Source: an uncultured virus (IMG/VR IMGVR_UViG_3300037189_025930) (lineage: Duplodnaviria > Heunggongvirae > Uroviricota > Caudoviricetes). From it: DNA of 64,000 nucleotides. Below, piece by piece: positions 3,325 to 60,074 of the stretch. The stretch lies in IMG/VR virus record IMGVR_UViG_3300037189_025930; one strand, written 5' to 3'. Every line of letters starts with the position of its first letter. Position 1 is the first letter of the stretch. The notes under the pieces were generated by a model, which saw only the letters and a program-made list of their open reading frames with translations, was not told where the DNA came from and ran no database searches. Made by a program: the position numbers and the translations under genes.

Positions 3325-3325
3325 C

Positions 3326-6301: not shown

Positions 6302-6323
6302 ATTAAAAACTCCAATATTTTAT

Positions 6324-9378: not shown

Positions 9379-9426
9379 TCCTTAATATATTTATTCTTAT
9401 ATATATTCTATAATAAAGAATAATAG

Positions 9427-9443
9427 ATGTATAAACCTAAAAA
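9427..9443 (-). promoter_or_regulatory. Extended early-type promoter heading the family C array
   Basis: TTTTTAGGTTTATACAT on minus strand. Confidence 0.65.
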
Positions 9444-9447
9444 TTAA

Positions 9448-11424: not shown

Positions 11425-11793
11425 TTAACTTATGCTTGTTTTTTTACGACTTTGTTTAATCTTATCCTTATTTTTTTCACGATATTGTTTTTTATATTGT
11501 TTTACTTTATCTTTATTTTCTTCATAGTATTGTTTTTGACGTTCTTTTATTTTATCCTTATTTTCTTCACGATATTGTTTTTGATATTTTTTTAAGTTAT
11601 CCTTATTTTCTTCATAGAAAATTTTAATCTTATCCTTGTTTTCTTCATAGTATTTTTTAATCTTATCCTTATTTTCTTCATAGTATTGTTTACTTTGTTC
11701 TTTATTTTTTTTATAATATTGTTTTTGATATTTTTTTAAGTTATCCTTATTTTCTTCATAGTATTGTTTTTTATATTCTTTTGTATCGAACAT
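11425..11793 (-). CDS. Low-complexity protein with 11-aa YYEENKDK repeats
   Basis: KKQYYEENKDK-like unit about 9 times; AGGAG RBS; own promoter at 11849. Confidence 0.7.
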   Translation of the reverse strand: MFDTKEYKKQYYEENKDNLKKYQKQYYKKNKEQSKQYYEENKDKIKKYYEENKDKIKIFYEENKDNLKKYQKQYREENKDKIKERQKQYYEENKDKVKQYKKQYREKNKDKIKQSRKKTSIS

Positions 11794-11872
11794 AGTATCT
11801 GCTCCTAATTAAATTTCTATAATAGTATTGTAATATAGAATTAATTAGATGTATTAACCCAAAAATTAAACC

Positions 11873-13390
11873 TTATATTAAAGTTACAGGAACCTTTAAT
11901 AAATTTTCGTATATCTTCTTTCTTTTTTTACTTTGCTTTAAAGATAAAGGATTATCATATTGCATGAAATCAATTATTTCAGCGTCTTCTTTAAGAGTGT
12001 TTAAATCTTTTCTAGTTGCTCTACCTATCTTTTGCATGACTCTAACATTACTTACAGAACTACCAGCTAGGATAAGTGTTTTAATTGCTGGTATATCTAC
12101 TCCGACATCAAAAATAGAACTCGCAATAATTACTGTGTTTAGATCATCTTTTATTTTTTGTTTAGCTTGTTCACGAGCGTAACGATCATCATCACCACTA
12201 ATTAAAATGCCATGTGGAATAAGTTTTAATAATTCTCTTCCATGTGCTAACTTAGTGAATAGGATAAGAACTCTTTCTTTTTGCGATGCTATTTTAGCAA
12301 TGAGTTCATTTCTAGTGGAATTATAAATATATAAATTGCTTTCATCACCATAACAAATAAATTTTCTAGCACTTATGTTATTACCTTCTTTAACGATTTC
12401 ATAATTTAATTTTTCATAAATCTCTATATCTTCTGGTTTTTTAATTTTTATTGTTTCATAAACATCATTCCAAGATCCAATTATTGGTATAGAATTTATA
12501 ACACCTATTTTATACATAGTTACTGATACTGTTGCTAGTGTTCCCATATCACGTAATTTATCGTATGGTACCTTATGTATGATTGGACCTATGTTACCAT
12601 GTAATTTCATTTTTTCGTAAGGATTTTCAATTACTGATACAGTTGCTGACAAACCTATTTTAATAGAAGCGCTTTGACAAGAATAAATAATCTTCTCTGC
12701 TGTTGACGTTCTACCAGTTTCGTGACACTCATCAGTAATAATAACTTTTATATCTGGAAAAAGATGAAAGATATTTTGATAACTTTGTGTTGTTAGAAGT
12801 GTTATTCTACACGAATCATCATAAGATCCGCCACCAATTATACCAACTTCATCTTCTTTGAATCCATACTCTTTAACAAATTTTTCTCGTGTTTGAAAAA
12901 GAAGTTCTGTACGATTAAAAAGAACTAAAATTTTAGATGTATTATAAAGACTACACGCCATAGACATAATAAAAGTATTGTGGTGAACATATCCTTTGGC
13001 ATCAGAATATAAGTGATCCTCACTATCTATTTGAAGATCAAATACATCTTCTTCATCTTCTAGTTTTATGCTTTCTATGCCAACTAGACTTGCATTGTTT
13101 TTAATGAGTTTATCTTTTAGGTTTAAATCTTTACATTTTTTTTCTTCCCAATTTTGGGTACAAATAATATGATTTGTACCTACCTTAAGAAGATCTTTAT
13201 TTTGTAATACAATTTTTAAGATTTGATCTCGTTTTTTTATTAGTGCTGGAACTTTTTGAAAATCACCATTTTTATCTTTTAATTTAATTTCTGTTTTTGG
13301 ATAATATTCTTCATCTGTATAAAAGTTATGTTTTTCATATTTTTCAATAGCTTCAAATAGTTTACCTATTTTAATTTTTACCTTTTTCAT
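11873..13390 (-). CDS. uvsW: UvsW-like SF2 helicase C-terminal part, preceded by C-intein (aa 1-138)
   Basis: VFDLQI..HHN|T intein end; helicase motifs ITDECH, IGLSAT, FDVGVDIP, QKIGRATR. Confidence 0.9.
   Translation of the reverse strand: MKKVKIKIGKLFEAIEKYEKHNFYTDEEYYPKTEIKLKDKNGDFQKVPALIKKRDQILKIVLQNKDLLKVGTNHIICTQNWEEKKCKDLNLKDKLIKNNASLVGIESIKLEDEEDVFDLQIDSEDHLYSDAKGYVHHNTFIMSMACSLYNTSKILVLFNRTELLFQTREKFVKEYGFKEDEVGIIGGGSYDDSCRITLLTTQSYQNIFHLFPDIKVIITDECHETGRTSTAEKIIYSCQSASIKIGLSATVSVIENPYEKMKLHGNIGPIIHKVPYDKLRDMGTLATVSVTMYKIGVINSIPIIGSWNDVYETIKIKKPEDIEIYEKLNYEIVKEGNNISARKFICYGDESNLYIYNSTRNELIAKIASQKERVLILFTKLAHGRELLKLIPHGILISGDDDRYAREQAKQKIKDDLNTVIIASSIFDVGVDIPAIKTLILAGSSVSNVRVMQKIGRATRKDLNTLKEDAEIIDFMQYDNPLSLKQSKKRKKIYENLLKVPVTLI
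12977..13390 (-). mobile_element. Split intein C-fragment (138 aa)
   Basis: Block B-like GTNH, block F VFDL, block G HHN followed by Thr+1. Confidence 0.9.
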
Positions 13391-13431
13391 ATATAATTAT
13401 ATTTCAACTATAACTATATGTTTAAACAATA

Positions 13432-14964
13432 TTAAGGATTATTTTCCTTTTCTATTTTTATTTTTTTCTCTATCATATCATAATAAATTTTATTATTAGT
13501 AAATTTATTGCTTCTAACTAATTTAAAAATTTTATCTAATATAACATCTATTGTATTTTGAAAATTATAAACTTCTTTTTTACCAACTAATTGTTTTCCT
13601 ATTTGACCTATTTCATATTGATTAGTATATTTTTGAAATTGAATATATTTTTTAAATAATCTTTCTCTTTTTTCTTTATCTGGTATTTTCAACATAGCTG
13701 CTTCAATGTCGTTTTTACTTTTACCTCTCATCCTCTTTAAAAAATTAGGAAGTTCTACTATCTCTTCTTTTCTTTTAGTATTACCAGATGTAGAACTTGT
13801 TTTCATTAAGCTTTGACCAGAATCTAATGCTTTATAAAATATTTGATTAATATCATTAAGTTCAGGATGATCACTAATTTTTTTATCATCTAGATATTTA
13901 TCTTTTTTAAATAATATTTGTATTGCTGGGTAATCGTTAAAGTATGTTCTAAAATCTTTCCACGTTGGAATTTTACTTTGACGTTTTTGAATTGAAGAAA
14001 TAACGTTTTGAATAAATGGATAACTATATCTTTTAAAATTAACTATTTTACCTTGAGAATCTTTATGTTTTTGTAAAAAAGAATATGAGTTTTGAAAATA
14101 TTGTTTATGTTTTTCAACAACTGAAAAAATATCAATTAAGAGTTTTCCGTAAACAACTTTTTCATTAAATAACTGTCTTTGTATTAAATATTTTATTTTT
14201 TCATCTTTAAAGAAATTAAGAACTGTTTCTAATTGATTTTTTGATTGAATCTCAGAAAGATCTTTATAAAAAACGTCTATAAAAGGTTTTTGAACTTCAT
14301 AACTATAATAAAAAATCATATGATCAGACTGTAAAGCATATAGTTCATTTAATAAACTTTCTGGTGAATAACCGCTAGGATCATTAAATCCATATCCATT
14401 ATCACTTATTGAAAAATAAAACATATCTTCTTGATTAGCAAAAAGATGTAAAACTAAATCATGAATTATTTCTGCATTGATATTATTAAGCGTAGTTACA
14501 TCGCTTAAATAAAGTTCGCCTCTTTCACTTTTAAAAAAGGCCCAAAAATTAGAATTTTGTAATTCTTTTTCAAAATGCTTTTTATAATCTTTATTTAAAT
14601 TTTTATCATCCTTAAACCATTCTACTATATGATTAATATATTTTATTTTAAAATTGTGAAGCGCTGCTTTATCATTTTTATCGTCTTCTATAAATTTTTC
14701 AACCATTTCTAACGATTCATTTTTTTCCTTCGTTTGATTAAATTCAATTTTAATTTTTTGTTTTTTATTGTTAGGAAAAATTTTATTAAATCTATCTATC
14801 TCTTCGTTAATAAAAAATTTTATCTGTTTCATTAAATAAGCATTATCAATAAAATTTAAAAATGAATCATCTTTTCCTATATTAAGACCAATTTGAGTGG
14901 AATTAAAATTAATCGTTGAACCTATACCTTCAACAAGAAGATTTAATTTTTCAATAAATTTCAT
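13432..14964 (-). CDS. Hypothetical protein between the split-helicase halves
   Basis: 510-aa ORF; no nuclease motif recognised; MKFIEKLNLLVEG N-terminus. Confidence 0.8.
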   Translation of the reverse strand: MKFIEKLNLLVEGIGSTINFNSTQIGLNIGKDDSFLNFIDNAYLMKQIKFFINEEIDRFNKIFPNNKKQKIKIEFNQTKEKNESLEMVEKFIEDDKNDKAALHNFKIKYINHIVEWFKDDKNLNKDYKKHFEKELQNSNFWAFFKSERGELYLSDVTTLNNINAEIIHDLVLHLFANQEDMFYFSISDNGYGFNDPSGYSPESLLNELYALQSDHMIFYYSYEVQKPFIDVFYKDLSEIQSKNQLETVLNFFKDEKIKYLIQRQLFNEKVVYGKLLIDIFSVVEKHKQYFQNSYSFLQKHKDSQGKIVNFKRYSYPFIQNVISSIQKRQSKIPTWKDFRTYFNDYPAIQILFKKDKYLDDKKISDHPELNDINQIFYKALDSGQSLMKTSSTSGNTKRKEEIVELPNFLKRMRGKSKNDIEAAMLKIPDKEKRERLFKKYIQFQKYTNQYEIGQIGKQLVGKKEVYNFQNTIDVILDKIFKLVRSNKFTNNKIYYDMIEKKIKIEKENNP

Positions 14965-14997
14965 AATTTATTTTTATGATTTAAAAATAAAAATTCT

Positions 14998-15336
14998 TTA
15001 AATTATTAAATGCGGATTATCTTTTAAAATTTTTTCTATCCTTGACTTCTCGAAGTTATACCAAATATCTTCTGCATCCCTTTCTATTTTATCTTTATCA
15101 AAATCTTTTTGTGAATACCAACGATTATACTTATTAAATAAATCATAATGAAACATCCCTATTTTTAGAAGTTCTTCTAATTCTTTTTTATCTTCTTCAA
15201 TATAAATGTTATAAGTGAACGGATCATTCCATCTCCATCTTAAATAAAGAATTAACTCTATTCCTTCGACATAAACTCTTTTACTTAATTGTGTTGGACA
15301 CCAAGCAATCATTTCATCCCATTCTGAATCATTCAT
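14998..15336 (-). CDS. Hypothetical protein
   Basis: WCPTQ..LYLRWRW; start at ATGA overlap. Confidence 0.75.
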   Translation of the reverse strand: MNDSEWDEMIAWCPTQLSKRVYVEGIELILYLRWRWNDPFTYNIYIEEDKKELEELLKIGMFHYDLFNKYNRWYSQKDFDKDKIERDAEDIWYNFEKSRIEKILKDNPHLII

Positions 15337-15533
15337 ATTAATAACTCTGGGTGTTCTTTTTCTACCCAATCAAGAAGTTCAAAATAATATTCTAATTTTT
15401 TTTCTTTCCACATGCTTTGGTTATCAAGATTTTTTAAATATCCTAGCGATGCACTAAAGTTAAATTTTCCTACACAACTGACTTGGTAATTTTTAATCAT
15501 CTTATCATATTCTATTGTATATTGATTTTTCAT
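15333..15533 (-). CDS. Family C-like small protein
   Basis: ends WVEKEHPELLI. Confidence 0.75.
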   Translation of the reverse strand: MKNQYTIEYDKMIKNYQVSCVGKFNFSASLGYLKNLDNQSMWKEKKLEYYFELLDWVEKEHPELLI

Positions 15534-16039
15534 ATAAAATTATGTTTTATTAGAAATGAATAAAAGTCATCATCAACTTCTATTTCAATCTCTGTTGATT
15601 TACCAAGACATTTACCCATTCCAGTTCCTCCCTCCATTATTCCTCCACGATATTTAACTAAATCAGCTAGAGCATCTATTTGGTAATCCCTTGCTTCGTG
15701 AATTCCCATTTTAATTTGTTTATCGTTGATCCCATCTAATATGTTTTGGTTTTGTTTTGGAAATTTTCTAAAGTCTTTAATTTCAATTTGAAAATTATTT
15801 TGTTTAGAATAAATTCTAAGATGTGGAACTAAACCAGTTGGAAGAATAGAGTTTTCAACGTCGTAAAAACAATGATCAGCACTCATTAGTCCTCTTATTA
15901 CCATAGGGTTTCTTTCTAGCGATGGATTTCTAACTGTAAATTTTTCTTTCAGCATTTTAATAAATTCTTTCTTTTCTGATTTATCGACTGATTCAAAATC
16001 TATTTTAGAATGTGTATTAGCAATTAATATTTTTATCAT
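15530..16039 (-). CDS. uvsW: UvsW-like helicase N-terminal part, followed by N-intein (last 26 aa)
   Basis: LPTGL, Q-motif RDYQ, Walker A GGTGMGK interrupted by intein start CLGKSTEI. Confidence 0.9.
   Translation of the reverse strand: MIKILIANTHSKIDFESVDKSEKKEFIKMLKEKFTVRNPSLERNPMVIRGLMSADHCFYDVENSILPTGLVPHLRIYSKQNNFQIEIKDFRKFPKQNQNILDGINDKQIKMGIHEARDYQIDALADLVKYRGGIMEGGTGMGKCLGKSTEIEIEVDDDFYSFLIKHNFI
15533..15610 (-). mobile_element. Split intein N-fragment (26 aa)
   Basis: CLGKSTEIEIEVDDDFYSFLIKHNFI; block A C-L-x-x-x-T-x-I. Confidence 0.9.
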
Positions 16040-16375
16040 TTATATAATGTACTCCTCAAAACTAAACGATCTTAAAAACTTTTTTAAACTTTTATGATTA
16101 AGAATGTTAATCTGTTTTATCATATCAAATTTTTCTTTTGTAATAGGAATAATAATATCATGTCCAGTTCTCCATTCTTCAAAAGTAAAGTTATCTCCAA
16201 GTTTTTGAAACGTGAATCTTTCTTTATTTTTAAAACTTGTAGAACAATGAGAATATATTTGTTGATTAAAAGAATTATAAAAGTCTATCATGGAAATTTT
16301 ATCTGTTGGATCATTAGAAAATTTATCTAACGATATTCCCATATATAAGTAAGTTTCTTTTTTAGATTCAACCAT
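16040..16375 (-). CDS. Family A small protein
   Basis: YLYMGI..IIIPI; ends FEEYII. Confidence 0.75.
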   Translation of the reverse strand: MVESKKETYLYMGISLDKFSNDPTDKISMIDFYNSFNQQIYSHCSTSFKNKERFTFQKLGDNFTFEEWRTGHDIIIPITKEKFDMIKQINILNHKSLKKFLRSFSFEEYII

Positions 16376-16586
16376 ATCCGCCTCTATTTATCCACATTGG
16401 TTTGTTAATTGATCTTCTTTCTTCTAATTCTTTTTTATATTTAAAAACAGAAGAAAAAATAACTTCTTCGTTAAAAGAAGATATTATTTTACTTTTAATA
16501 AGATTATTTAATGTGTGTTTTTTAATTTGTAAAATATCACATGCCTCTTTTTTAGTTATTGTTTGTTTTTCTATTGTTGTTTCCAT
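16368..16586 (-). CDS. Excisionase/MerR-like helix-turn-helix protein
   Basis: TKKEACDILQIKKHTLNNLI; paralog of 16603..16794. Confidence 0.65.
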   Translation of the reverse strand: METTIEKQTITKKEACDILQIKKHTLNNLIKSKIISSFNEEVIFSSVFKYKKELEERRSINKPMWINRGGYG

Positions 16587-16602
16587 TTATTTTTTTATCC
16601 TT

Positions 16603-16794
16603 TTAAAATTCATTTCTTTTAATCCAATTTATTGGAGGTGCTTTTCTTCTTTCCTCTAATTCATTAAGGTAATCAAAAACTGATTGATCAATTATTTTAC
16701 CAGTAATATCAGTTTTAATTGCCTTTCTTTTAATTGCTTCATTAAGAGCTTCTAATCTAATGTTTAAAATTCTAGTTGCTTCTTTTTTTGTCAT
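16603..16794 (-). CDS. Excisionase/MerR-like helix-turn-helix protein
   Basis: TKKEATRILNI; shares SVFxY..ELEERR..WI with neighbour. Confidence 0.65.
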   Translation of the reverse strand: MTKKEATRILNIRLEALNEAIKRKAIKTDITGKIIDQSVFDYLNELEERRKAPPINWIKRNEF

Positions 16795-16839
16795 TTAATA
16801 TTCCTTTATATATAATATATATACAAAATATAAAAGTGT

Positions 16840-17370
16840 TTATTCTAAAAAACTTTCTTTATACGTTCCATAAACAGTTTCATCTATATCAAAGTGAACT
16901 AATTTATTTTTATCCCATCCTACATTACCACCCCATAAATCACCTCCATCACTTAATCCAAATTCTTTTAATTGACTTTTAATCTTTTTTAATTCAAAAC
17001 CAATAAGTCCAAAATTATTTAAATCTTTATTTTTTAAAGCAAAATCAACTAAATCAGATGTTATAGAATTAACAAAATAAAACTTTTTATAAATAACATA
17101 TAATTCATTAGGACTTAAAATATTACAATCATATACTGTACAAAGATTAAGATATTGATTCTTAATTAATTTTTTAGAAATCTTATATTCTAATCTTCTA
17201 GTTGTTAATTTTATAACTCCTCTTATTTCAGAATCAGAAACCATAAAAGCGTCTCCTTCATCTCCTGATCCAAGATAATATTGATAAGAATAAAAAACAT
17301 TATTTTTAATTAGAAAATTATTATATTTCTCTTTTATCTTTTTATTTTCTAATAAATATAAAGTTTTCAT
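16840..17370 (-). CDS. Small protein-kinase-like fold protein
   Basis: YLGSGDEGDAF, VIKLT, DLWGGNVG, LVHFD. Confidence 0.65.
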   Translation of the reverse strand: MKTLYLLENKKIKEKYNNFLIKNNVFYSYQYYLGSGDEGDAFMVSDSEIRGVIKLTTRRLEYKISKKLIKNQYLNLCTVYDCNILSPNELYVIYKKFYFVNSITSDLVDFALKNKDLNNFGLIGFELKKIKSQLKEFGLSDGGDLWGGNVGWDKNKLVHFDIDETVYGTYKESFLE

Positions 17371-17372
17371 TT

Positions 17373-18266
17373 TTAAATTAAGAACTCTGAGAAGTTTACT
17401 GTTTTCTTTTTACTTAATTTATTGAGAAAATTTGTATAGCGATTTATAATTCTTTTATCTGTTTTAGAACTAAAGATATTTTGATGTGCTTTTACAAAAG
17501 GTCTTTTTATAATTTTCATTGCATACATAACACTAAGGTTAGCATCAAGAACAATAAACTCTTCTGCTTCTTCCCAACCTTTTGGATGTGCTCCATTTAT
17601 ATATCTAAAAATATTTACATGAGGATATTTCTCGCAAAAATATTTCATATTTTTAATAATCTCTTTATCAATATCGTCAATTTTACATTTAGCGATTTTA
17701 TCTATATAATAAGATAATTGGTAAACAAGGTGGAAGTGCAAATGGCTAGAAAAGTTTATATTTGTTATTTCTTCTAAAAAAACTTGTTCTCCCTCTTTCC
17801 ATCTACCTTTAATATAATATTTAGAATACCAATTAATATCGTTAAGAGATTTACATTCAATAATAGCGTCTTCACCTTCTTTCCATCTTCTTTTAATTAC
17901 ACTAGAGATATAATATCTAATAGCCATAAAATCCTTAAACTCTACCATACATTTTTCTAATTTTGGAAATAAATCTTCAAGATCTCTAACTTTATTTTCT
18001 ATCAAAAAAGTTAAATAAAAATAAATAGATTGATCAGAAGGAAAGTTAAAAATTATATCTTCGCCTTCTATCCATCTATCCATTACAACTTCTCTAGCAT
18101 AGAAAACAGCTAATAAAGGATTTTGACTCTTTAAAATTCTTTCCTCTAAATTTAAATCTCTTTTTCTATTAACTTTATGCTTTCTTACAATTTCGTAAAA
18201 ATCTTCTTTTAAAATTTGGTCATCAATTTTTATTATGTGATCGTATTTATAGTTATATTTATTCAT
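17373..18266 (-). CDS. Long family B helical-repeat protein
   Basis: Several RWxEGE repeats; ends FSEFLI. Confidence 0.85.
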   Translation of the reverse strand: MNKYNYKYDHIIKIDDQILKEDFYEIVRKHKVNRKRDLNLEERILKSQNPLLAVFYAREVVMDRWIEGEDIIFNFPSDQSIYFYLTFLIENKVRDLEDLFPKLEKCMVEFKDFMAIRYYISSVIKRRWKEGEDAIIECKSLNDINWYSKYYIKGRWKEGEQVFLEEITNINFSSHLHFHLVYQLSYYIDKIAKCKIDDIDKEIIKNMKYFCEKYPHVNIFRYINGAHPKGWEEAEEFIVLDANLSVMYAMKIIKRPFVKAHQNIFSSKTDKRIINRYTNFLNKLSKKKTVNFSEFLI

Positions 18267-18365
18267 ATTATTTTATCCTATATATTATATTATAATTCAA
18301 TTTATAATAAGTGTTTAAACCTAAAAAGTAAACAGTCTAATTAGTTAATCTTTTAAAAAATCTTT

Positions 18366-18737
18366 TTAAATCAAATGGTGTAAGAAACAAGTCATTTTAT
18401 TTATTTCGTACCAACGAAAATATTCCCATCTTTGTTCTTGTTCCTTATAAATGTAATTATAATCTTGTAAAGAATGAAAATATCCTGGTTCATCTAAACT
18501 TTTATATTCTAAATAAGCAATACGACTATCTTTTTCATGATAAAAATCTGTTTCATTTATCGTTGATCCTAAACAAGAAACATCGCCATTTTCAATAAGT
18601 TCATCTACTTGTTGAGGCGTTTTATAGTTTACAATTAACGTTTCTCCTACTCCTTCTAAATACCCATCCCAGTGACAATAGATTGATTTTAATGTTCCAT
18701 ATTTTTTTAAAATTGAAATTGTTGATCTTGTAGCCAT
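18366..18737 (-). CDS. Conserved phage protein (YCHWDGY family)
   Basis: MATRSTI..SIYCHWDGYLEGVG; paralog at 34284. Confidence 0.8.
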   Translation of the reverse strand: MATRSTISILKKYGTLKSIYCHWDGYLEGVGETLIVNYKTPQQVDELIENGDVSCLGSTINETDFYHEKDSRIAYLEYKSLDEPGYFHSLQDYNYIYKEQEQRWEYFRWYEINKMTCFLHHLI

Positions 18738-18747
18738 TTGTATCTCC

Positions 18748-19218
18748 TTATATCATATATTCAGAAAATTTGTTAATGTTGTAATTGTTGTTTTGTAAAA
18801 ATTGTATATAGTCTTGTAAAAATTTAGAATTAAAAATTATTTTATTAAATTGTGGCAATGGTTTTTTGACAACGTACTTTATATACCAGTAAGAATATTT
18901 TGGATTTTTAATAATACTTTTTTCTCCTTTTTTAAATCTTCCTATTTTTATATCTTTGGCATAATGATAAGAACACTCTGAATCATTAGAAATTACTTCT
19001 TCTCCTTTTATCCATTTACCTTTAACAATATGAAGGGCATATAAGTAAGAATAATAAGGACTTGTAATAATTATATTTTCTCCTTTTCTCCATTTACCTT
19101 TAACAACGTGAAGAGCATACTGATAAGAATAATTAGCGTCAGTAGAAATAATATTTTCTAATTTAGGAGATCTCTTATTTTCGTATGAAGAAATAAAAAA
19201 AGCTATTTTAGGAGTCAT
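18748..19218 (-). CDS. Family B helical-repeat protein
   Basis: Four 24-aa repeats; ends FSEYMI. Confidence 0.85.
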   Translation of the reverse strand: MTPKIAFFISSYENKRSPKLENIISTDANYSYQYALHVVKGKWRKGENIIITSPYYSYLYALHIVKGKWIKGEEVISNDSECSYHYAKDIKIGRFKKGEKSIIKNPKYSYWYIKYVVKKPLPQFNKIIFNSKFLQDYIQFLQNNNYNINKFSEYMI

Positions 19219-19502
19219 ATTAAGTGTTCTTCTAAAGATATTTTTTCAAAAAAATCCTTAATATTAATATGGTGTTTTTTCATAATTCCATAAGTATTTA
19301 TTTTAGTAAAAACATTTTCATCAATAAAGATTGTATGCTTTTTAATAAAATCAATTGATAATGATAAATAAGATGCTACTTCATTAATATTATAATCATC
19401 ATATGTATATATCGTATGAATTAAATTGCCATTAAAAAATTTTTCATCTTGACTAATTTTCTTATACATATCATTAATTGTTACAATAAACAATTTTCTC
19501 AT
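19215..19502 (-). CDS. Family A-like small protein
   Basis: ends LEEHLI. Confidence 0.75.
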   Translation of the reverse strand: MRKLFIVTINDMYKKISQDEKFFNGNLIHTIYTYDDYNINEVASYLSLSIDFIKKHTIFIDENVFTKINTYGIMKKHHINIKDFFEKISLEEHLI

Positions 19503-19816
19503 ATGATCCACTCTTCTAATCCATTTAGAGCAAGAAAAATGTTTTTATTAGTTTCTCGTAAATTATGTATTGATAATTTTAAAAAATCATTAAACAGTCT
19601 TTTTGAAATTGGAATTTTATATTGTTTTGTTTTTTGAGATTCATCAAAACTATCATAATAATTTTTAATTTCATATGTTCCAAAAAAACAAAGTTTTTCA
19701 TTGAAATCATATAAAATAAAACTATCAATTTTATTAAGACTATCAGAAGTTATTTCTAAATAGTAAGGAGTATTTAACATTATTTTTTTATTTATCTTTT
19801 TGATCTTATAATTCAT
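19499..19816 (-). CDS. Family A small protein
   Basis: YYLEI..LYD..YKIPIS; ends LEEWII. Confidence 0.8.
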   Translation of the reverse strand: MNYKIKKINKKIMLNTPYYLEITSDSLNKIDSFILYDFNEKLCFFGTYEIKNYYDSFDESQKTKQYKIPISKRLFNDFLKLSIHNLRETNKNIFLALNGLEEWII

Positions 19817-19858
19817 TATACTAAATAATCCTCATGTTTTTATAAAAATTATAAATAG

Positions 19859-20173
19859 TCATATTAACCATTCTCCTATTTCATTAAGATCATAATTGAT
19901 AGATTTTAAAAAGTTTATATAATCGTTTTTATAAATAGAACTAAAAATAATTGGATGACATAAATTGAATGGACCTTTAATTACATAATGAGCATAATAA
20001 TAAGAATATTCTGAATGTGTAGCAATATTTTTTTCACGGCTTTCCCATCTTCCTCTAATTACATCACTAGCATAACGATAAGAATAATATGAATCAGTAG
20101 CAATAATATTTTCTAATTCAGGTATTCTACGATTTTCATTATAACATTTAATATAGGCTTCTTTAGGAGTCAT
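19859..20173 (-). CDS. Family B helical-repeat protein
   Basis: ends FLKSINYDLNEIGEWLI. Confidence 0.85.
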   Translation of the reverse strand: MTPKEAYIKCYNENRRIPELENIIATDSYYSYRYASDVIRGRWESREKNIATHSEYSYYYAHYVIKGPFNLCHPIIFSSIYKNDYINFLKSINYDLNEIGEWLI

Positions 20174-20559
20174 ATTAACCATTCTCCTATTTCATTAAGA
20201 TCATAATTAATAGATTTTAAGAAATTTATATAATCATTTTTAAATGAAGATTTAAAAATAACTGGATGAGCGAGATGAAATACATTTTTTAATATATTTT
20301 TTGCATAACGATAAGAATAAAATGGTTCTGTGGAAATAATCTTTTCTCCTTTTGGAAAAGGAGCCCTTACTATTTCTTCAATATAGTGATGAGTATGATA
20401 TACACTAATGATTATCGCTTCTTCTCCTTGAACGAATCTTTCGTTTAAATGACAAGCATAAAGAAAAGAAGATTCTGGATCTTGTGCAATTATTTTTTCT
20501 AATCTACAAGATCTTTTATTGTTTTTAATAATTTTATCAAGTGCTTGTCTAGGGGTCAT
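20170..20559 (-). CDS. Family B helical-repeat protein
   Basis: ends FLKSINYDLNEIGEWLI. Confidence 0.85.
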   Translation of the reverse strand: MTPRQALDKIIKNNKRSCRLEKIIAQDPESSFLYACHLNERFVQGEEAIIISVYHTHHYIEEIVRAPFPKGEKIISTEPFYSYRYAKNILKNVFHLAHPVIFKSSFKNDYINFLKSINYDLNEIGEWLI

Positions 20560-20762
20560 ATTATCCACTCCCCATAATTACGATATAAAATTTCTTGAAA
20601 AATTTTATAATGTTCTGGAGCATCTTTCTCTAGTATCAACAAATCTTTAAACGCAACATTTAAGAAATGATGATAGTGATCTTCAGTTTTATAAAAAATT
20701 CTTTTCTTGTTTATGTCTACTACTAGTGATTCCCATATGATTTTTCTTTTTTTAATATCCAT
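20556..20762 (-). CDS. Small protein with C-terminal E-x-x-I motif
   Basis: ends NYGEWII; promoter at 20812. Confidence 0.7.
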   Translation of the reverse strand: MDIKKRKIIWESLVVDINKKRIFYKTEDHYHHFLNVAFKDLLILEKDAPEHYKIFQEILYRNYGEWII

Positions 20763-20922
20763 ATATTTATATATAAAATTTCTAATTAAATTATATACAA
20801 ATATAAAATAAATGTTTAAACCTAAAAAAATAGCGTATTTTAATAGTAATTTTTTGGGTTTATAAAATACTTACAAAAAATATTATTCTATTAGTATAAA
20901 TTTTAAAACCGGAGAAAAAACC

Positions 20923-21099
20923 ATGGAAATTAAAGTAAGTAAAGTTTACAGAGTAAACGGGGTTGAATACAATTCTAAAGAAGAAGCAGTCAAAGCAACC
21001 GCAAGAGAAATTCTTGAAAAACACTTCGAGAATGGGTTAGAGGCTCTTATTGAGAATGCTGAAGAAGTACGAAAGGCTTTAAACATTCTTTCTAAGTAA
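20923..21099 (+). CDS. 58-aa protein, family D (not in ORF track)
   Basis: MEIKVSKVYRVNGVEYNSKEEAVKA; GGAG RBS; paralogs at 29268 and 30359. Confidence 0.8.
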   Translation: MEIKVSKVYRVNGVEYNSKEEAVKATAREILEKHFENGLEALIENAEEVRKALNILSK

Positions 21100-21103
21100 G
21101 AAG

Positions 21104-21136
21104 AAAAAAGTGGGGTTGAAAAATCCCACTTTTTTT
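21104..21136. terminator. Intrinsic terminator
   Basis: AAAAAAGTGGG..CCCACTTTTTTT. Confidence 0.85.
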
Positions 21137-21187
21137 ATGTTTATTTATTTTTTATCATTTAATAAAATTTGTTAATTATGTTTTATA

Positions 21188-21466
21188 TTAAATATCTCTT
21201 ACAAAACGAACATACATTCTTGAATCTAAATCCATTTTCCAAATATTAGCAGTATAAAAATAAACAATTAATTTATATTGATCTTCTGTATCACAACTCC
21301 AATAACCCCATCTCTGAAAACCTTCTTCATAATTTTTACAAGCATACAGTAATTCATCAATAGAAGGTAATCTCCAACCATCTTCAGATACAGTTTTTAA
21401 ATAGTCCATAGCATCTTTATAATTTAATTTTTCTGTGCAATGAAATTTTTCCCATTCTAGTTCCAT
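21188..21466 (-). CDS. DUF1566 (Lcl C-terminal-like) domain protein
   Basis: LEWEK, GWRLPSIDEL, YWS, VRFVR. Confidence 0.8.
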   Translation of the reverse strand: MELEWEKFHCTEKLNYKDAMDYLKTVSEDGWRLPSIDELLYACKNYEEGFQRWGYWSCDTEDQYKLIVYFYTANIWKMDLDSRMYVRFVRDI

Positions 21467-21532
21467 TTTTTATTTTTATGTTTTCTTAATATAATTATAT
21501 TAAGAAAAGGACAAAAGGTATAAAAAATGAAA

Positions 21533-21709
21533 TTAAATAATTAATTCAGAATGATATTTTTTTAACCACTTTAACATATCTTTATATACATAAGAATTAT
21601 CATAGTAAATAAATCTTTCTTCTATTAAAAAATCTATTGATGCTCTTATTGAAGTCAGATTATCATCAATATATTTATTTTCTTTTAAAGAAAAATCACT
21701 TTTATTCAT
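21533..21709 (-). CDS. Family C-like small protein (58 aa, not in ORF track)
   Basis: ATGA-coupled; ends KWLKKYHSELII. Confidence 0.7.
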   Translation of the reverse strand: MNKSDFSLKENKYIDDNLTSIRASIDFLIEERFIYYDNSYVYKDMLKWLKKYHSELII

Positions 21710-22086
21710 ATTAATTGATGAGAATATTGAATTAAAAGCGAATCAATTTTTTCCTTACTATATCCTTTTTCAATTAAGAAATCCACATAATCATCTATAC
21801 AGTCTTGATCATTTTTTGAATTAAAAATAACTGGATGTCCTTTTTCAAAGGGTGCATCTAAAACATAAAAAGCATACTCTGTTGCAAGTTGTGGATTTTT
21901 AAGAATAATTGCTTCTCCCTCTGGAAAAGATCCTCCTACTACGTCTAAAGCATAAACATAAGCGGTATCTTCTTCAGATGCAATTATTTTTTCAAGTTTA
22001 TGGATTCTTTTGTTATACTCACGACATATTTCTAAAGCCCTTTGAGCTCTTGAATAAGTTGTTTTATTTCTTGTTGACTTTCTCAT
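21706..22086 (-). CDS. Family B helical-repeat protein
   Basis: LEKIIA..FPEGE..PFEKGHPVIFNS. Confidence 0.8.
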   Translation of the reverse strand: MRKSTRNKTTYSRAQRALEICREYNKRIHKLEKIIASEEDTAYVYALDVVGGSFPEGEAIILKNPQLATEYAFYVLDAPFEKGHPVIFNSKNDQDCIDDYVDFLIEKGYSKEKIDSLLIQYSHQLI

Positions 22087-31901: not shown

Positions 31902-32435
31902 ATGAAACAAGAAGAAATAAACAACAAAAAAGAAATTTTAAATCAAGATATTAACAAAGATAAGATAGATATGATTAATAGTAATGATGTAGATCTTATA
32001 ATAGAAAACATAAAAGATATTTTTTATGAAGAAGTTTTTATTGATAATCAAGAACAAACCTCTCAAATAAATGAGGGTTTGCTTTTTAATAGAATTGAAG
32101 ATTACTTAAAAGGATTTTTTAGCGTTAAAAAAAACGTTCATATTCAAGAGGTCAAAGAAGAAATAGAACTAGAAGAGACTTATAAACATCCTTGTTTGCC
32201 ATATTCTAAATTATCACATTATCTTTATAATAGAGGTAGTAACTGGAGTCTTTTAACGATAGATGATTTTATTAGTTTACCTAACAGTATAAAGAAAAAT
32301 TTTGATGATGATTTTTATTGGAGTTCAACACCATATGATCATCAAAATTATTGGGCATTTTCTTTTAAAAATAATAAGAAAGTTATAGTGAATATTAATA
32401 TGTACTGTTATGTTCTTTTAAAGAAATCAGTTTAA
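31902..32435 (+). CDS. Protein with C-terminal DUF1566-like region
   Basis: WSLLTIDD..FYWSST..WAFSF. Confidence 0.6.
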   Translation: MKQEEINNKKEILNQDINKDKIDMINSNDVDLIIENIKDIFYEEVFIDNQEQTSQINEGLLFNRIEDYLKGFFSVKKNVHIQEVKEEIELEETYKHPCLPYSKLSHYLYNRGSNWSLLTIDDFISLPNSIKKNFDDDFYWSSTPYDHQNYWAFSFKNNKKVIVNINMYCYVLLKKSV

Positions 32436-33442
32436 ATTTTTTCAAAATCTGGCTGAATCATTTTCCAAATTATTTTATCTACATCTTTATTATCTAATAA
32501 TCCAAATACAACAGACATTACATCTTTGTGATTATTAAGTAAGTGAACTGCTATTGATTTACGATCAGGAAAATTTTTAACATCATTAGCAATAGAAATT
32601 GATTTTTGTTTAATAGAAGAAAATTGATTTTCTAATTCTTCTTTAACATCTTTAACTTTTTGAAAGAATTCATCTGGAACAACTTCTAGAAGATCATTAA
32701 AATTTGCTCCAGTGCTTAACATCTCCCATACTTTTTTATTGCTAAATTCAGTAACGATTCCATGTAATTGAACATAGTCTTCAAATTTAATTTTAATTCT
32801 TTTTCCATTTTCAAACTTAATTACAAAACCTTCGTGATTTTTGATGTTAAGATTTTTAAGTTCTTTAAAAGATAGTGAATTGTATTGGCTAGGTTTTAAA
32901 TATGGAAAACCATAATCTTTTAATTCTATTTCTTGTAAGGAATTGCGATCAAAAATGCCAAGCATTATAATATCTTCTTGATCACCGTAGTTTAATACAA
33001 TACGATTCTCAGGATAAATTATTTCAAATAGATAAGTCCAATCACGATTTAAAGAATCTAAAAGATGAGAATATTTTTGGATTAATATTTGTTTAGCTTT
33101 AACAGACTGTTCAGAAATGAAGGATCCTCTAGTTGCCATATGCCAACCTTCATAAAAGAAAAGAATACCTAGTGATCCATCTAATTTTTCATAAATCGTA
33201 TAAGGTTCGTTAGGAATACTTTTTTCTTCTTCTAAATTAAAAAACTTAGGAAAAGGTTTAGCGATAACATTATAATTATCGTCTAAGATTAATCCTCTAC
33301 ATTGAAGAGTTATTTCATTCCATTCCTTTTTGAATTGACAAAATTTAGAATAATTAAAGATCGTAATTGGAAGAGTAGGGTGATCAGTAGCATTGACTAA
33401 ATCTTCTTCAACCATTTTTTCAAGTAAATTTATATTAACCAT
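32432..33442 (-). CDS. rnlA: T4 Rnl1-like RNA ligase
   Basis: CRGLI, PFPKFFN, motif I EKLDGS, ATRGSF, FEII, EGFV, KIK. Confidence 0.92.
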   Translation of the reverse strand: MVNINLLEKMVEEDLVNATDHPTLPITIFNYSKFCQFKKEWNEITLQCRGLILDDNYNVIAKPFPKFFNLEEEKSIPNEPYTIYEKLDGSLGILFFYEGWHMATRGSFISEQSVKAKQILIQKYSHLLDSLNRDWTYLFEIIYPENRIVLNYGDQEDIIMLGIFDRNSLQEIELKDYGFPYLKPSQYNSLSFKELKNLNIKNHEGFVIKFENGKRIKIKFEDYVQLHGIVTEFSNKKVWEMLSTGANFNDLLEVVPDEFFQKVKDVKEELENQFSSIKQKSISIANDVKNFPDRKSIAVHLLNNHKDVMSVVFGLLDNKDVDKIIWKMIQPDFEKI

Positions 33443-33473: not shown

Positions 33474-33520
33474 GTGTTTAAACCTAATAGTTCTATTGTT
33501 TCTTTTTTAGGTTTAGACAT
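33474..33520. promoter_or_regulatory. Divergent pair of extended promoters
   Basis: GTGTTTAAACCTAA (-) and TTTTTAGGTTTAGACAT (+). Confidence 0.65.
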
Positions 33521-44103: not shown

Positions 44104-45117
44104 ATGAGAAAATTAGCCACTATTAGATATGTTCAAGAATTAGTTCCTATAGAAGGGGCTGATCTTATTGAGGTTGCTGTAGTAGACGGATGGAACTGTG
44201 TTGTTAAAAAAGGTGATTTTGAAGTTAGACAAATGTGTGTTTATTTTGAGATTGATTCTTTTTTACCAATTCATCCAGTGTTTGAATTTTTAAGAAAAAG
44301 TTCTTATAAAAAAATGGGTGATCAAGAAGGCTTTCGTCTAAAGACAGTTAAGTTAAGAGGAACTATAAGTCAAGGATTAATAGTTCCAATAAAAACTTTA
44401 ATTGATTCTTCTTTATTAAAAGAAAGAAACTTTTATGTAAGTGAAGATTTAACAGAAGAGTTAGGAATTCAAAAATACGAACCTCCTATTCCAGCACAAT
44501 TAAGTGGAGTTGCAAGAGGAAATTTCCCATCTGAAATTCCAAAAACTGATGAAGAAAGAATCCAAAATTTAGATTATAATAAATTAGTTGATGATCAATA
44601 CTATGTCACAGAAAAATGTGATGGTAGTTCGATAACTATTTATTTAAAAGACGGTGTCTTTGGAGTTTGTTCTAGGAATTTAGATTTACTAGAAGACGAT
44701 AAAAATACTTTTTGGTCTACTGTTAGAAAATTAAATATTGAAAATATTTTAAAAAGTAAATCAATAGATAATATTGCTTTACAAGGTGAATTAATTGGTG
44801 AAGGTATTCAAGGTAATAAGTATAAAATATCTGGACATCAAATTAAATTCTTTAATGTTTTCGATATATTCACTATGAAATATTATAACTTTAATGATTT
44901 TAAAACGATCATTAAAAATCTAGGATTAGAGACAGTTCCAATGATTGATGAAGATTTTAAATTACCTTTTAACATGAAAGAATTATTGACTTATGCAGAA
45001 GGTAAATCTTTATTACATAAAGATACAGAAAGAGAAGGGATTGTTTTAAGAACTAAAATTCTTAATCGAACATCATTTAAAGCAATCAGTAATAAATTTC
45101 TTTTAAAAGAAGATTAA
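44104..45117 (+). CDS. RNA ligase, DRB0094 family
   Basis: RKLATIR, YFEIDSFLP, KLRGTISQGL, KTDEERIQN, TEKCDGSS, QGELIG, EGIV, SFKAISN. Confidence 0.92.
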   Translation: MRKLATIRYVQELVPIEGADLIEVAVVDGWNCVVKKGDFEVRQMCVYFEIDSFLPIHPVFEFLRKSSYKKMGDQEGFRLKTVKLRGTISQGLIVPIKTLIDSSLLKERNFYVSEDLTEELGIQKYEPPIPAQLSGVARGNFPSEIPKTDEERIQNLDYNKLVDDQYYVTEKCDGSSITIYLKDGVFGVCSRNLDLLEDDKNTFWSTVRKLNIENILKSKSIDNIALQGELIGEGIQGNKYKISGHQIKFFNVFDIFTMKYYNFNDFKTIIKNLGLETVPMIDEDFKLPFNMKELLTYAEGKSLLHKDTEREGIVLRTKILNRTSFKAISNKFLLKED

Positions 45118-46206: not shown

Positions 46207-47136
46207 TTAAAAATTTCCTTCTTGAACCTGTAAACATTTAACTCCGATGCTTCTCCACATTTCTACAACTTGATTTCTATCATCTAAACAAAAAAGAACA
46301 TTATAATTATCTTTAATATATTTATCAAATATTTCTTTTTTAACAATAGCATCTTTTCTAAAATCTTTATATTTTCTCATGTATAAAAAATCAAAAGGAA
46401 CACGATATTTATTTAACCAATCACAAGTCATGTTATAGCAAGAATCTTCCCTTCCTGAAACAATTATTATTTTGTGATTTGAATTTTTATAAGAAGTAAC
46501 TATATCTCTAATAATTTCGTCTATATCATCATTAATAACTTTATCATATTCAAATGGACTTCTTAATCCGCCACTATGAGATAGTGTTCCATCTATATCA
46601 ACAATTATAGCCCTATCGTTATTATTAATAATTGGTATTTTACTAATGATTGTTGGTTTATATTCAGAAATAAAAGAAGAATCGTTATTAAAATTATTAA
46701 TTAATTCAATAACACTTTTTAAATTTTGTTTACACCTTGTAAAAAATTTTTTAATTACTACCAGATCAACTTTTCTATCACGATTTAAAGATCTTTCTAA
46801 TAGTGTATCAAACGGTATATCACTAAAATCAACAAGACGAACCTTAATTTTTATTTTACTTTTTTTTATTAAATTAAGGAAGTCTTTAATGTATTTAACT
46901 TTAGAAAAAGTATTATCACAAATAATATCGTATTGAGTAATTAAAGATGAAAAATAAGATTCCTCTATTTTAGTTATTATGGTTTCAATCTCAGGTAAAT
47001 TAGAGTGATCGTTTAAATTATCTCTAATAACATCTCTTGAAACAATTTTTATGTCTTTATCGTATTTAGTTATAAGGTTAGAAAAAGTTGTTTTACCAGA
47101 TAGAGGTGGGCCATAAAGGATATATATATTTCTCAT
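46207..47136 (-). CDS. pseT: Polynucleotide 5'-kinase/3'-phosphatase
   Basis: GPPLSGKTT, SRDVIR, HAD DIDGT, SGR, LDDRNQVVEMWR. Confidence 0.95.
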   Translation of the reverse strand: MRNIYILYGPPLSGKTTFSNLITKYDKDIKIVSRDVIRDNLNDHSNLPEIETIITKIEESYFSSLITQYDIICDNTFSKVKYIKDFLNLIKKSKIKIKVRLVDFSDIPFDTLLERSLNRDRKVDLVVIKKFFTRCKQNLKSVIELINNFNNDSSFISEYKPTIISKIPIINNNDRAIIVDIDGTLSHSGGLRSPFEYDKVINDDIDEIIRDIVTSYKNSNHKIIIVSGREDSCYNMTCDWLNKYRVPFDFLYMRKYKDFRKDAIVKKEIFDKYIKDNYNVLFCLDDRNQVVEMWRSIGVKCLQVQEGNF

Positions 47137-49524: not shown

Positions 49525-49893
49525 ATGGATAATTTACAAATAATAAAAAAAGAATTACAAAAATATACAATGATTAATAATTTTAAAGAAACTGATAAAT
49601 TTATTATAATCAATACAAATATTCCAATTAATTTTAGAAATCCTAATACAGAAGTTTCATTTAAACAAAAGGATAAAAATTATATTTCCTTTAAACTAAA
49701 AAAACAAAATTGGTCACTAACAATATCTAAAATACAATGGGTTTTCCCTAAAAAAAGTTTTAAATTTGAATTAAAACATAAGTATTCAATTTATTTTCGA
49801 TATTATAATTACAAGGATACTTTAGAATATGCAATAGAAAAAATAGATGACTTTTTAAAAGAATACATTTTAAACATGCAAGATTATATATGA
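49525..49893 (+). CDS. Hypothetical protein
   Basis: Downstream of promoter at 49480. Confidence 0.65.
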   Translation: MDNLQIIKKELQKYTMINNFKETDKFIIINTNIPINFRNPNTEVSFKQKDKNYISFKLKKQNWSLTISKIQWVFPKKSFKFELKHKYSIYFRYYNYKDTLEYAIEKIDDFLKEYILNMQDYI

Positions 49894-50234
49894 AATTTAT
49901 TGATTATTATTTATGTATAAACGATTATGATCATACAAAATATAAAGAATTATGTTTAATTGATTTTAATAATTATTATGTTATAATTTTTCACAATGTT
50001 GATAATTTATTAATTAATAAACAAAAAGTTATTTTTGATTTTTTTAAAACAGAAGAAGATCTTATTGTTTTTAAACATTATTTTAATGGTTATTATGATT
50101 GTCAAATAAATAAAATGCACGAGTTATCTTTTAAAGATTTTCAAAAATTATCTAACGATACACCAAAACACTTAACAGAAGAATCATTAAACGATTTTTT
50201 TAAGAAGCATCAATTATTTGAATTGATTATTTGA
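49890..50234 (+). CDS. Family A-like small protein
   Basis: YYLCI..LIDFNNYY; ends LFELII; close to 51665. Confidence 0.75.
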   Translation: MKFIDYYLCINDYDHTKYKELCLIDFNNYYVIIFHNVDNLLINKQKVIFDFFKTEEDLIVFKHYFNGYYDCQINKMHELSFKDFQKLSNDTPKHLTEESLNDFFKKHQLFELII

Positions 50235-50790: not shown

Positions 50791-50842
50791 AATTTTGCCT
50801 CTTTTTATTTATCTAGTTAAATAATAAACTAAAAATTTAATA

Positions 50843-50913
50843 GTGACTAAACCCAAAAGAATATCCTATACAGAATTTTAGGTTTAAACACTTATCTAAA
50901 ATAATTATATAAT
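50843..50913. promoter_or_regulatory. Divergent pair of extended promoters
   Basis: (+) TTTTAGGTT-TAAACA-N17-TATAAT; (-) copy at 50843-50858. Confidence 0.75.
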
Positions 50914-50921
50914 AGTTACAA

Positions 50922-51230
50922 ATGGATAATATTTTATATATAAGATTAGAAGGAGATTCTATAAAAGGGTTATTATTATATGATAATAAAGGTAATAACT
51001 ATCATAGTGATAATAATTTTTTTACAATGACTTTTTATATGTTAGGACAAGAAGTAAGTAAATCTAAAAATCAAGAAATAATAAAATCTTTTAATAAAGA
51101 AAATTATTATAAATATTTTATTGATAATGATATCTTTAAAAAAATATTAAAAATGACTAACTATGAAATTCAAAATATAGATGTAAAAGATTTTATATTT
51201 AGATTAGGATTATTAGAGGCATATATTTAA
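50922..51230 (+). CDS. Family A small protein
   Basis: LYIRL..LLLYD; ends LLEAYI. Confidence 0.75.
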   Translation: MDNILYIRLEGDSIKGLLLYDNKGNNYHSDNNFFTMTFYMLGQEVSKSKNQEIIKSFNKENYYKYFIDNDIFKKILKMTNYEIQNIDVKDFIFRLGLLEAYI

Positions 51231-51265
51231 AAAAGAATTACCAATATCCCTTAATTTTTCCTAGC

Positions 51266-51339
51266 AGTCGTCCTGGCGACTTTAAATAGTTCCTTAAGCC
51301 AGAGCGTGCACACTCTTTAAAATGGTTTGTGCGGTGGAG
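51266..51339 (+). ncRNA. Pistol self-cleaving ribozyme
   Basis: P1 AGUCG/CGACU with loop UCCUGG; UUAAAUAG; P3 UUCC/GGAG; UUAAG; pseudoknot CCAGA; GCG; P2 UGCAC/GUGCG; G-U cleavage site 51334/51335. Confidence 0.85.
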
Positions 51340-51347
51340 ATCATAAT

Positions 51348-51668
51348 ATGGATTATGAAAAATTTTATAATGATATAGAATCTTTATTATATAAATATAA
51401 AGATGAATTTAATGTTTCTAGAGGAGGAACTCTACTAGACAAAATTGAGAATGTTTTTTATGATTACGTAGAAAAAATAAATGAGTGTTCAAGATTAGAA
51501 GATGATATATCAGACTCTCTAGGTGCAAATTCAGAGTACAGAGTTGAAATTGATACCTTACAAGAAGAAAATGACGCTCTATCGTCTAAAGTATTTCAGT
51601 TAGAAGAATCTATTAATCAATATCGTAACATCTTATTAGAAAATAATTTGAGTGAACATTTACTTTGA
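51348..51668 (+). CDS. Coiled-coil hypothetical protein
   Basis: ATG 8 nt after GGAG; ends LSEHLL. Confidence 0.75.
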   Translation: MDYEKFYNDIESLLYKYKDEFNVSRGGTLLDKIENVFYDYVEKINECSRLEDDISDSLGANSEYRVEIDTLQEENDALSSKVFQLEESINQYRNILLENNLSEHLL

Positions 51669-52057
51669 AATTTGAAGGATATTACGTTCATATTATTGAT
51701 GATAATTACGTTAATAATGGTAATTTATATGGATATAAATTAGATTTAATTAATTTTAATAATTATTATTTTATATCTTATTTTTCTGAATATCATTATG
51801 TGGACGTTAAAGATAACGTTTTAATGGAATTTCGTTATTTTGATAAACGTTATGATATCAAAAAAACTTTTAATTTAGAAAGATTACTTTTAAAGGATGT
51901 TAAATATGATCATATATATGATGTTAATATAAAAAAAATGTATCCTTTAAATTTAAAAACTTTTTTTAACTTAAAAAGGAATAGACCAAAATCTATGAAA
52001 TCAGAATATATTAATGAATATTTTATTGAAAATAAATTATATGAGCTAGTGATATGA
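51665..52057 (+). CDS. Family A-like small protein
   Basis: LINFNNYY; ends LYELVI. Confidence 0.75.
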   Translation: MKFEGYYVHIIDDNYVNNGNLYGYKLDLINFNNYYFISYFSEYHYVDVKDNVLMEFRYFDKRYDIKKTFNLERLLLKDVKYDHIYDVNIKKMYPLNLKTFFNLKRNRPKSMKSEYINEYFIENKLYELVI

Positions 52058-52389
52058 AAAACAGTTATTATATTTATCTTAATTGCCATCAAATTAATCA
52101 TCAAATAATTGAATGCGTTTTATTTGATTTAGAAAATAAAAAAATATATGATCCATCAATCGTTAATGAGTTTGATAAAAAAAATGATTTAATAGGTGAT
52201 AACTATGTTGATTTTATTTTAAACGATGAATTATATGAAGAGTATTTAGTTAGTTATCCTGAGGATGAAGTATTTGTTTTGACACCTCAACAATTAAATT
52301 ATATATTAGGACTTCATCCTAATCAAATTTTTAGTCAAAGTTTAGAGGATCTTTTTACAACTCTTAAATTAGAGGAATATCTAATTTAA
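52054..52389 (+). CDS. Family A small protein
   Basis: YYIYL..VLFD; ends LEEYLI. Confidence 0.8.
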   Translation: MKNSYYIYLNCHQINHQIIECVLFDLENKKIYDPSIVNEFDKKNDLIGDNYVDFILNDELYEEYLVSYPEDEVFVLTPQQLNYILGLHPNQIFSQSLEDLFTTLKLEEYLI

Positions 52390-52459
52390 TATGATATACT
52401 TTTAGGTTTATGCATCTACTCAAAATTCTAGTATTCTATATACTAGAAGGAGAAATAGC

Positions 52460-52744
52460 GTGAGTATATATAAAATAAGTAAAAAAGGTTCTGAAGATTA
52501 TTCTGGAGCAATAATTGGCGGCGAGTTTTCAAAGTTTGAAGCTTTTAGTATTTTTAATAAAAAGTGTAATTTTGGAGATAATAATATTTTTGAACAGTTT
52601 GATATTGAAGAATTTCAAGATCTTCAAAAAGCTTTAGAAAAAATAGATTGTCCAGTTCTAGCACCTAGATATAAAAAAATGAATCGTAAATCAAGTGAAG
52701 CAAAAATAGTAATTTTACAATGGTATAAAGGATGGATAAAATGA
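52460..52744 (+). CDS. Hypothetical protein
   Basis: GTG start, AAGGAG RBS, promoter at 52400. Confidence 0.65.
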   Translation: MSIYKISKKGSEDYSGAIIGGEFSKFEAFSIFNKKCNFGDNNIFEQFDIEEFQDLQKALEKIDCPVLAPRYKKMNRKSSEAKIVILQWYKGWIK

Positions 52745-56566: not shown

Positions 56567-56666
56567 ATTACTTTCTCCTTATTTTATTATTTGTAATAAT
56601 ATAATATACTATAATATATAATAAGTGTTTAAACCTAAAAATAAAACACTTAATATATTAAAACAC

Positions 56667-59985: not shown

Positions 59986-60074
59986 GTGTTTAAACCTAAA
60001 AAAATATCCAGTACGGGTAGTTTATAAATGTCTTTTTTTTAGGTTTAGTCACTATTACTATTCTTATATATAAT
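59986..60074. promoter_or_regulatory. Divergent pair of extended promoters
   Basis: (-) GTGTTTAAACCTAAAAA; (+) TTTTTAGGTT-TAGTCA-N17-TATAAT. Confidence 0.75.

Follow-up and report, generated by a model that had tools for sequence, protein, structure and literature searches.

A pistol-class ribozyme, assigned by covariance model, lies between two same-strand genes of an uncultured giant phage and represents a variant of this known ribozyme class: the 3' strand of its pseudoknot is shortened, and its P2 helix doubles as the ribosome-binding site (RBS) of the downstream gene. We consider it probable that the ribozyme cuts constitutively within one transcription unit, separating gene 1 from genes 2-4, and that translation is affected only modestly, if at all. 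The window, that is the whole stretch of DNA analysed (64,000 nt), belongs to a source record (G001) of 290,274 bp, which has direct terminal repeats and is rated complete. The T4-like functions of the record comprise a UvsX-like recombinase, a gp32-like protein, a helicase, the RNA ligase Rnl1, an Rnl2-like ligase and a polynucleotide kinase/phosphatase (PNKP).

Pistol self-cleaving ribozymes are reportedly the subject of work by Weinberg et al. from 2015. An earlier note on this DNA had described a GC-richer intergenic stretch with a pistol layout, and each of the elements that it listed is present where the note had placed it. The GC content of the element is 47%, compared with about 24% for the window. 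The covariance-model comparison that the note had proposed gave a significant match: the Rfam Pistol family (RF02679) matches 51266-51339 on the plus strand over its full length (model positions 1-68 of 68) with 47.7 bits, the gathering score being 34.5. The E-value of this match is 1.3e-5 in the window and 1.4e-8 when the single family was searched over the genome. In the covariance-model alignment the core positions agree with the model consensus. The score belongs to the lower half of the pistol family scores seen in this analysis. With 74 nt and a P3 loop of 15 nt the element is a minimal pistol. By the covariance model it is a pistol-class ribozyme, and we regard this call as sound.

In the scans of the window none of the other Rfam families matched at or near the pistol, and a permissive Rfam scan of the window yielded nothing further that was credible. 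The pistol is the sole ribozyme match in the 290-kb phage genome. Since the remaining genome returned two tRNAs only, the pistol is the only catalogued ribozyme of this genome. In these scans the part of G001 from 280001 to 290274 was covered via the window scan, as it corresponds to 11548-21821 of the window according to our own coordinate mapping.

The features of the ribozyme and of its surroundings are compiled in Table 1. The helices are named as in Harris 2015 (PMC4604425), where P2 denotes the outer helix and P3 the hairpin; the earlier note had the two names swapped. It had also given the hairpin as five pairs (UGCAC/GUGCG), while the actual stem has six (UGCACA/UGUGCG). P2 consists of four pairs, and the 3' junction between P2 and P3 is exactly 2 nt long and reads GU. 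The alignment predicts the cut at the same site, G51334-U51335, at which the note had put the scissile junction.

Table 1. Positions of the ribozyme elements and of the neighbouring genes and promoter-like sites in the window.
Feature	Position	Strand	Basis or remark
Promoter-like site, motif TTAGGTTTAAACAC, then TATAAT	50878-50891, then 50908-50913	+	motif match
Gene 1, 102 aa	50922..51230	+	no family match, no SD
P1 hairpin AGUCG/CGACU	51266-70 / 51277-81 (51266..51281)	+	covariance-model alignment
P1 loop UCCUGG, 6 nt	51271-76	+	pseudoknot 5' strand
Conserved A-rich linker UUAAAUAG	51282-89	+	covariance-model alignment
P2 5' strand UUCC	51290-93	+	pairs C-G, C-G, U-A, U-G
Core UUAAG-CCAGA-GCG	51294..51306	+	UUAAG 51294-98, GCG 51304-06
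Pseudoknot 3' strand CCAGA	51299-303	+	5 nt, not 6
P3 hairpin UGCACA/UGUGCG	51307-12 / 51328-33 (51307..51333)	+	6 pairs, 15-nt loop
GU junction, predicted cut G51334/U51335	51334..51335	+	alignment; junction position as in PMC4604425
P2 3' strand GGAG	51336-39	+	Shine-Dalgarno (SD) core of gene 2
Gene 2, 106 aa, ATG 51348	51348..51668	+	coiled-coil-like hypothetical
Gene 3, 130 aa	51665..52057	+	overlaps gene 2 stop
Gene 4, 111 aa	52054..52389	+	overlaps gene 3 stop
Next copy of promoter-like motif	52402..52415	+	3 mismatches; before gene 52460; likely start of next unit

By our own mapping, which is an inferred one, onto the numbering of the review PMC6154101, A51297 corresponds to purine-32, G51298 to G33 and G51304/C51305/G51306 to G40/C41/G42; all of these positions are conserved. 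A predicted minimum-free-energy fold lacks P1 and is no better than the folds of shuffled sequences (z = -0.15), but nested folding cannot model a pseudoknot.

For comparison, 99 unique pistols were listed in a survey, the cut sites being placed by the covariance model in 65 of them and by our own parse in 34. The two procedures agreed in 14 of 14 checks. The survey pattern demands a strict core, ORFs shorter than 40 codons were left out, and the 3' ends of low-scoring covariance-model pistols with long P3 inserts may be misplaced. Among the matches listed, the junction is GU in 81 of the 99 pistols.

The pistol pseudoknot consists of six pairs that link the P1 loop with the junction of P2 and P3 (PMC6154101). 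In the window pistol, in contrast to this six-pair helix, the 5-nt strand CCAGA opposite the loop UCCUGG allows four contiguous pairs and, past a bulged C, one U-A pair, with a duplex energy of -4.9 kcal/mol. The earlier note was right in calling this strand one nucleotide short: among the matches listed, all 90 other unique viral pistols that were parsed have a longer one.

The loss of a base in the pseudoknot could mean that cleavage is crippled. The element would then be a relic with little or no activity, which persists as a junction for cassette exchange or as leader and RBS of gene 2. The absence of a 5-nt strand with a bulged C from the other viral pistols listed speaks for this possibility, as does a comparison with the pistol L330 on a 39-kb IMG/VR contig. 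P1 and its loop (AGUCG UCCUGG CGACU) are the same in L330, which is likewise situated between two same-strand ORFs. Unlike the window pistol, however, it possesses a 6-nt pseudoknot strand, scores 60.6 bits instead of 47.7 and has a separate RBS with the ATG 32 nt after the cut. Against a relic stands that every core position is retained in the window pistol.

Searches with a short-pseudoknot pattern bear on the same question. In viral contigs 4 stretches and in genome contigs 68 stretches fitted the pattern, and by our own parse none of them had the complementarity between P1 loop and pseudoknot strand that is typical of pistols. In metagenome contigs at least 119 stretches were found, and among the matches listed seven are real pistols with a 5-nt strand. 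They come from human-gut metagenomes and score 49.8-54 bits, above the Rfam cut-off, which argues against the reading as a relic. The seven (L132, L149, L165, L180, L190, L214 and L236) share the loop UCUGGG, and none of them is a close relative of the window pistol.

Related DNA was found in contigs from two DNA runs, X2 and X3, of the study that probably supplied the source sample; no RNA run was found to contain the locus. Both contigs align without gaps from position 51259 onwards, the X2 contig up to 52384 with 14 differences and the X3 contig up to 51983 with 7 differences. Upstream of this position they carry 384 unrelated letters in place of 50915-51258, the region of gene 1. One breakpoint directly follows the -10-like box, and the other is 7 nt ahead of the ribozyme. 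Judged by these contigs, gene 1 is a swappable cassette between conserved non-coding elements, with the ribozyme at the cassette edge. The recombination breakpoint so close to the element would fit a relic kept as an exchange junction. The only substitution within the element among the variants listed in related contigs is A51297G. Both A and G at purine-32 are reported to be active in the pistols tested (PMC6154101); A51297G as a change of purine-32 is therefore the kind of variant that keeps activity, and this again counts against a relic.

Shorter matches were obtained with a 262-nt contig of X5, which stems from an unrelated freshwater study, and with a 588-nt contig of X3. Both cover 51266-51310 only, without gaps and with 2-3 differences, and have other flanks. 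Beyond the match, judged by eye, a different hairpin follows in the X5 contig, and after it GU and GGAA; the pairing of GGAA with UUCC is retained. The short pseudoknot form is thus found gapless in at least three contig contexts, from which we conclude that it persists in nature. That this short form is kept in several contig contexts argues for a function without proving it. Altogether we regard an inactive relic as improbable, and as less likely than either cleavage-dependent translation or constitutive processing. A blastn search with 50800-52500 against the phage collection gave no match, and relatives of the gene 2 or gene 3 locus were not found in viral contigs.

The ribozyme seems to be situated inside a single transcription unit. 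The -10 box TATAAT upstream of gene 1 ends 8 nt before ATG 50922. A consensus scan found no terminator-like site in 50900-51350, and a motif scan found no promoter motif between the copies at 50878 and 52402. The ORFs all share one strand, genes 2-4 overlap, and the scans detected no terminator or promoter between gene 1 and the three-gene block; the ribozyme would thus divide one unit into gene 1 and genes 2-4. Promoters and unit boundaries are putative in this description, as they were placed by motif matches only. The earlier proposal that a cut would detach the three-gene block 51348-52389 from the cistron 50922-51230 is consistent with this arrangement. For gene 2 neither Pfam nor PHROG gave a match, and in the Atlas it leads only to unnamed viral clusters and to weak leucine-zipper-like candidates. 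Gene 3 (51665-52057) has a paralog at 49890-50234 in the neighbouring upstream unit.

The promoter-like motif is recurrent, with 45 matches at up to 3 mismatches compared with 17.4 expected. Followed by TATAAT about 16-17 nt later, it also occurs at 33474-33487(-), 18311-18324(-), 56625-56638(-), 59986-59999(-) and other sites. A TATAAT that starts 11-17 nt before an ATG and is not accompanied by an SD sequence was seen for 6 of 107 ORFs, the expected number being 1.6. This suggests that such ORFs are leaderless or near-leaderless first genes. Small ORFs of the window also fall into three large families of paralogs (18, 14 and 11 members); they are mostly arranged in head-to-tail arrays, for instance at 5437-10180(-) and 2125-4833(-), or scattered.

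We confirmed that GGAG at 51336-39, which forms the 3' side of the outer helix, ends 8 nt before ATG 51348. With its core at -12 it occupies the modal RBS position of this phage: GGAG, GAGG or AGGA is present at -17 to -8 in 41 of the 107 upstream regions of ORFs in the window, versus about 6% expected, and mostly at -11 to -13. The RBS lies within P2, a helix that is needed for catalysis. Among the matches listed, 44 of the 99 surveyed pistols are followed on the same strand by an ATG-ORF with 40 codons or more that starts not more than 60 nt after the cut, and the most frequent distance between cut and ATG is 25-26 nt. The window pistol differs from the others in that the 3' strand of P2 is the RBS and only 13 nt separate the cut from the ATG, the usual distance among the matches listed being about 25 nt or more. 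It alone (1/99 of the matches listed) has an RBS core overlapping the 3' strand of P2. The overlap of RBS and P2 is real and rare. In the literature searched, which lay outside the subscription journals, we did not find a natural pistol containing an RBS reported.

Several other arrangements were seen in the survey. In the two related loci L057 (381-443(-)) and L065 (384-446(+)) the 3' strand of P2 is AUGG, and the AUG, one base past the cut, begins a 77-codon ORF. With the AUG in P2, the mRNA released by cleavage would have practically no leader in these two cases. Tandem pistols, two or three per locus, are present in L103, L108, L109 and L013, where each pistol precedes a small ORF by about 21-27 nt with an A-rich, SD-less leader. 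L119 has two pistols that score just above the cut-off, with covariance-model distances of 101 and 105 nt. In two viral loci a tRNA gene is located about 150 nt downstream of the pistol (L010, 384-449 and 599-672; L077, 384-446 and 598-670).

As the most probable course of events we propose that the ribozyme would fold during transcription and, as inferred from its family membership, cut at G51334/U51335. The first product would carry gene 1, with the folded ribozyme and a 2',3'-cyclic phosphate at its end. The second would be the mRNA of genes 2-4, which would start with a 5'-OH and have a leader of 13 nt, bases 2-5 of which are GGAG. The likely effect is that stability and translation of gene 1 would be uncoupled from those of genes 2-4. 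The earlier statement that only 4 bp hold the two products together agrees with the predicted stability of P2, which is -2.1 kcal/mol. Because such a short helix should fall apart after the cut, the 3' product would dissociate and the RBS would become free. The overlap with the RBS would then reflect a tight packing of the ribozyme with the gene start and not a regulated switch.

The earlier note had gone further and suggested a cleavage-gated translation switch, in which the uncut folded ribozyme hides the RBS and cleavage turns on the translation of genes 2-4. The element would then be a natural ribozyme expression platform. The SD core is indeed one strand of a helix that the ribozyme needs, and the sequence of P2 is free in the family, yet GGAG stands here at the right spacing, as in none of the other pistols listed. 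In addition, a preprint on eukaryotic RNA viruses (bioRxiv 10.1101/2024.05.16.594327) reported that ribozyme cleavage is essential there for the initiation of translation. Several observations do not favour such a switch. The pistol is of minimal size (74 nt), and the Rfam scans revealed no sensor, be it an aptamer or another input domain. P2 is predicted to be much weaker than the pairing of the RBS with the anti-SD motif (-2.1 versus -6.4 kcal/mol). The computed cost of opening the RBS is almost the same for the uncut and the cut RNA (4.52 kcal/mol for the precursor and 3.91 kcal/mol for the 3' product); the model behind these values allows nested pairs only and leaves the tertiary fold out of account. 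In a separate single-strand folding, the predicted fold of the 3' product varied with the arbitrarily chosen 3' end. As the tertiary fold is ignored, the true masking of the RBS before the cut could exceed the computed value, and a compact tertiary fold could hinder the 30S subunit to a greater degree than four pairs imply. Pistols are reported to cleave at about 10 per min (PMC4604425); with such fast cleavage in the class the uncut state should be brief and a masked RBS short-lived. Finally, the X5 relative has, by eye, GGAA at the position of GGAG. The claim of a switch was therefore not supported, and we consider it unlikely.

The relation between ribosome and ribozyme could also be reversed. 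A 30S subunit bound to GGAG would block P2, so that initiation protects the operon RNA and the cut occurs mainly when initiation is slow. The computed energies (-6.4 kcal/mol for SD/anti-SD and -2.1 kcal/mol for P2) would allow such a competition, and by geometry P2 formation and ribosome binding are presumably mutually exclusive. Intramolecular helix formation is, however, far faster than 30S binding, and an overlap in one of 99 pistols (among the matches listed) offers no comparative support. We regard this competition as very improbable.

The two ways in which a start signal is found in P2, an SD sequence here and an AUG in L057 and L065, lead to a broader idea. Pistols could act as start-site makers: the 3' strand of P2 would serve the next gene as a start signal, and the 5' end of the mRNA would become the ribosome-loading site; translation of genes 2-4 would then depend substantially on the cut. 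We put this idea forward tentatively and think it rather doubtful.

The ends left by the cut could be substrates for the RNA repair enzymes of the phage. PNKP is encoded at 46207-47136(-), the Rnl2-like ligase, which has a PHA02142 OB domain, at 44104-45117(+) and Rnl1 at 32432-33442(-), all within 20 kb of the ribozyme. The substrates of T4 Pnkp and Rnl have the same end chemistry as the ribozyme products. Phosphorylation of the 5'-OH or resealing by these enzymes could make the cut reversible or time the decay of the RNA. To our knowledge, this gene set is nevertheless common in T4-like phages without a ribozyme. With PNKP as bait, two distant records were retrieved (G002 and G003, 35% identity), and neither of them has a pistol. 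A role of RNA repair at this locus appears highly improbable to us.

The ribozyme of the window shares with the known pistols (RF02679; PMC4604425) the three stems, a predicted pseudoknot between loop and junction (in its shortened form), the conserved core, the 2-nt GU cut junction and the association with phages. That pistols occur near phage genes has been known since 2015 (PMC4604425). A related arrangement is provided by prophage hammerheads, which are clustered between same-strand genes and have been suggested to divide long transcripts into mRNAs of gene length; the genes flanking them vary from one genome to another (Perreault et al. 2011, PMC3088659). The processing proposed here follows the same idea. 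As in these prophages, the ribozyme of the window lies between same-strand phage genes and has a variable flanking gene, gene 1. In contrast to the hammerheads, it belongs to another ribozyme class and occurs singly, not clustered, in a genome of 290 kb.

Should the effect on translation be only modest, the element would be one more ordinary member of an already known class of phage ribozymes. The locus indicates that a pistol with a shortened pseudoknot persists in nature and that a ribozyme may border a swappable gene cassette. It also provides a compact case for the biological role of pistols, with the RBS placed in a catalytic helix and only 13 nt between the predicted cut and the start codon.
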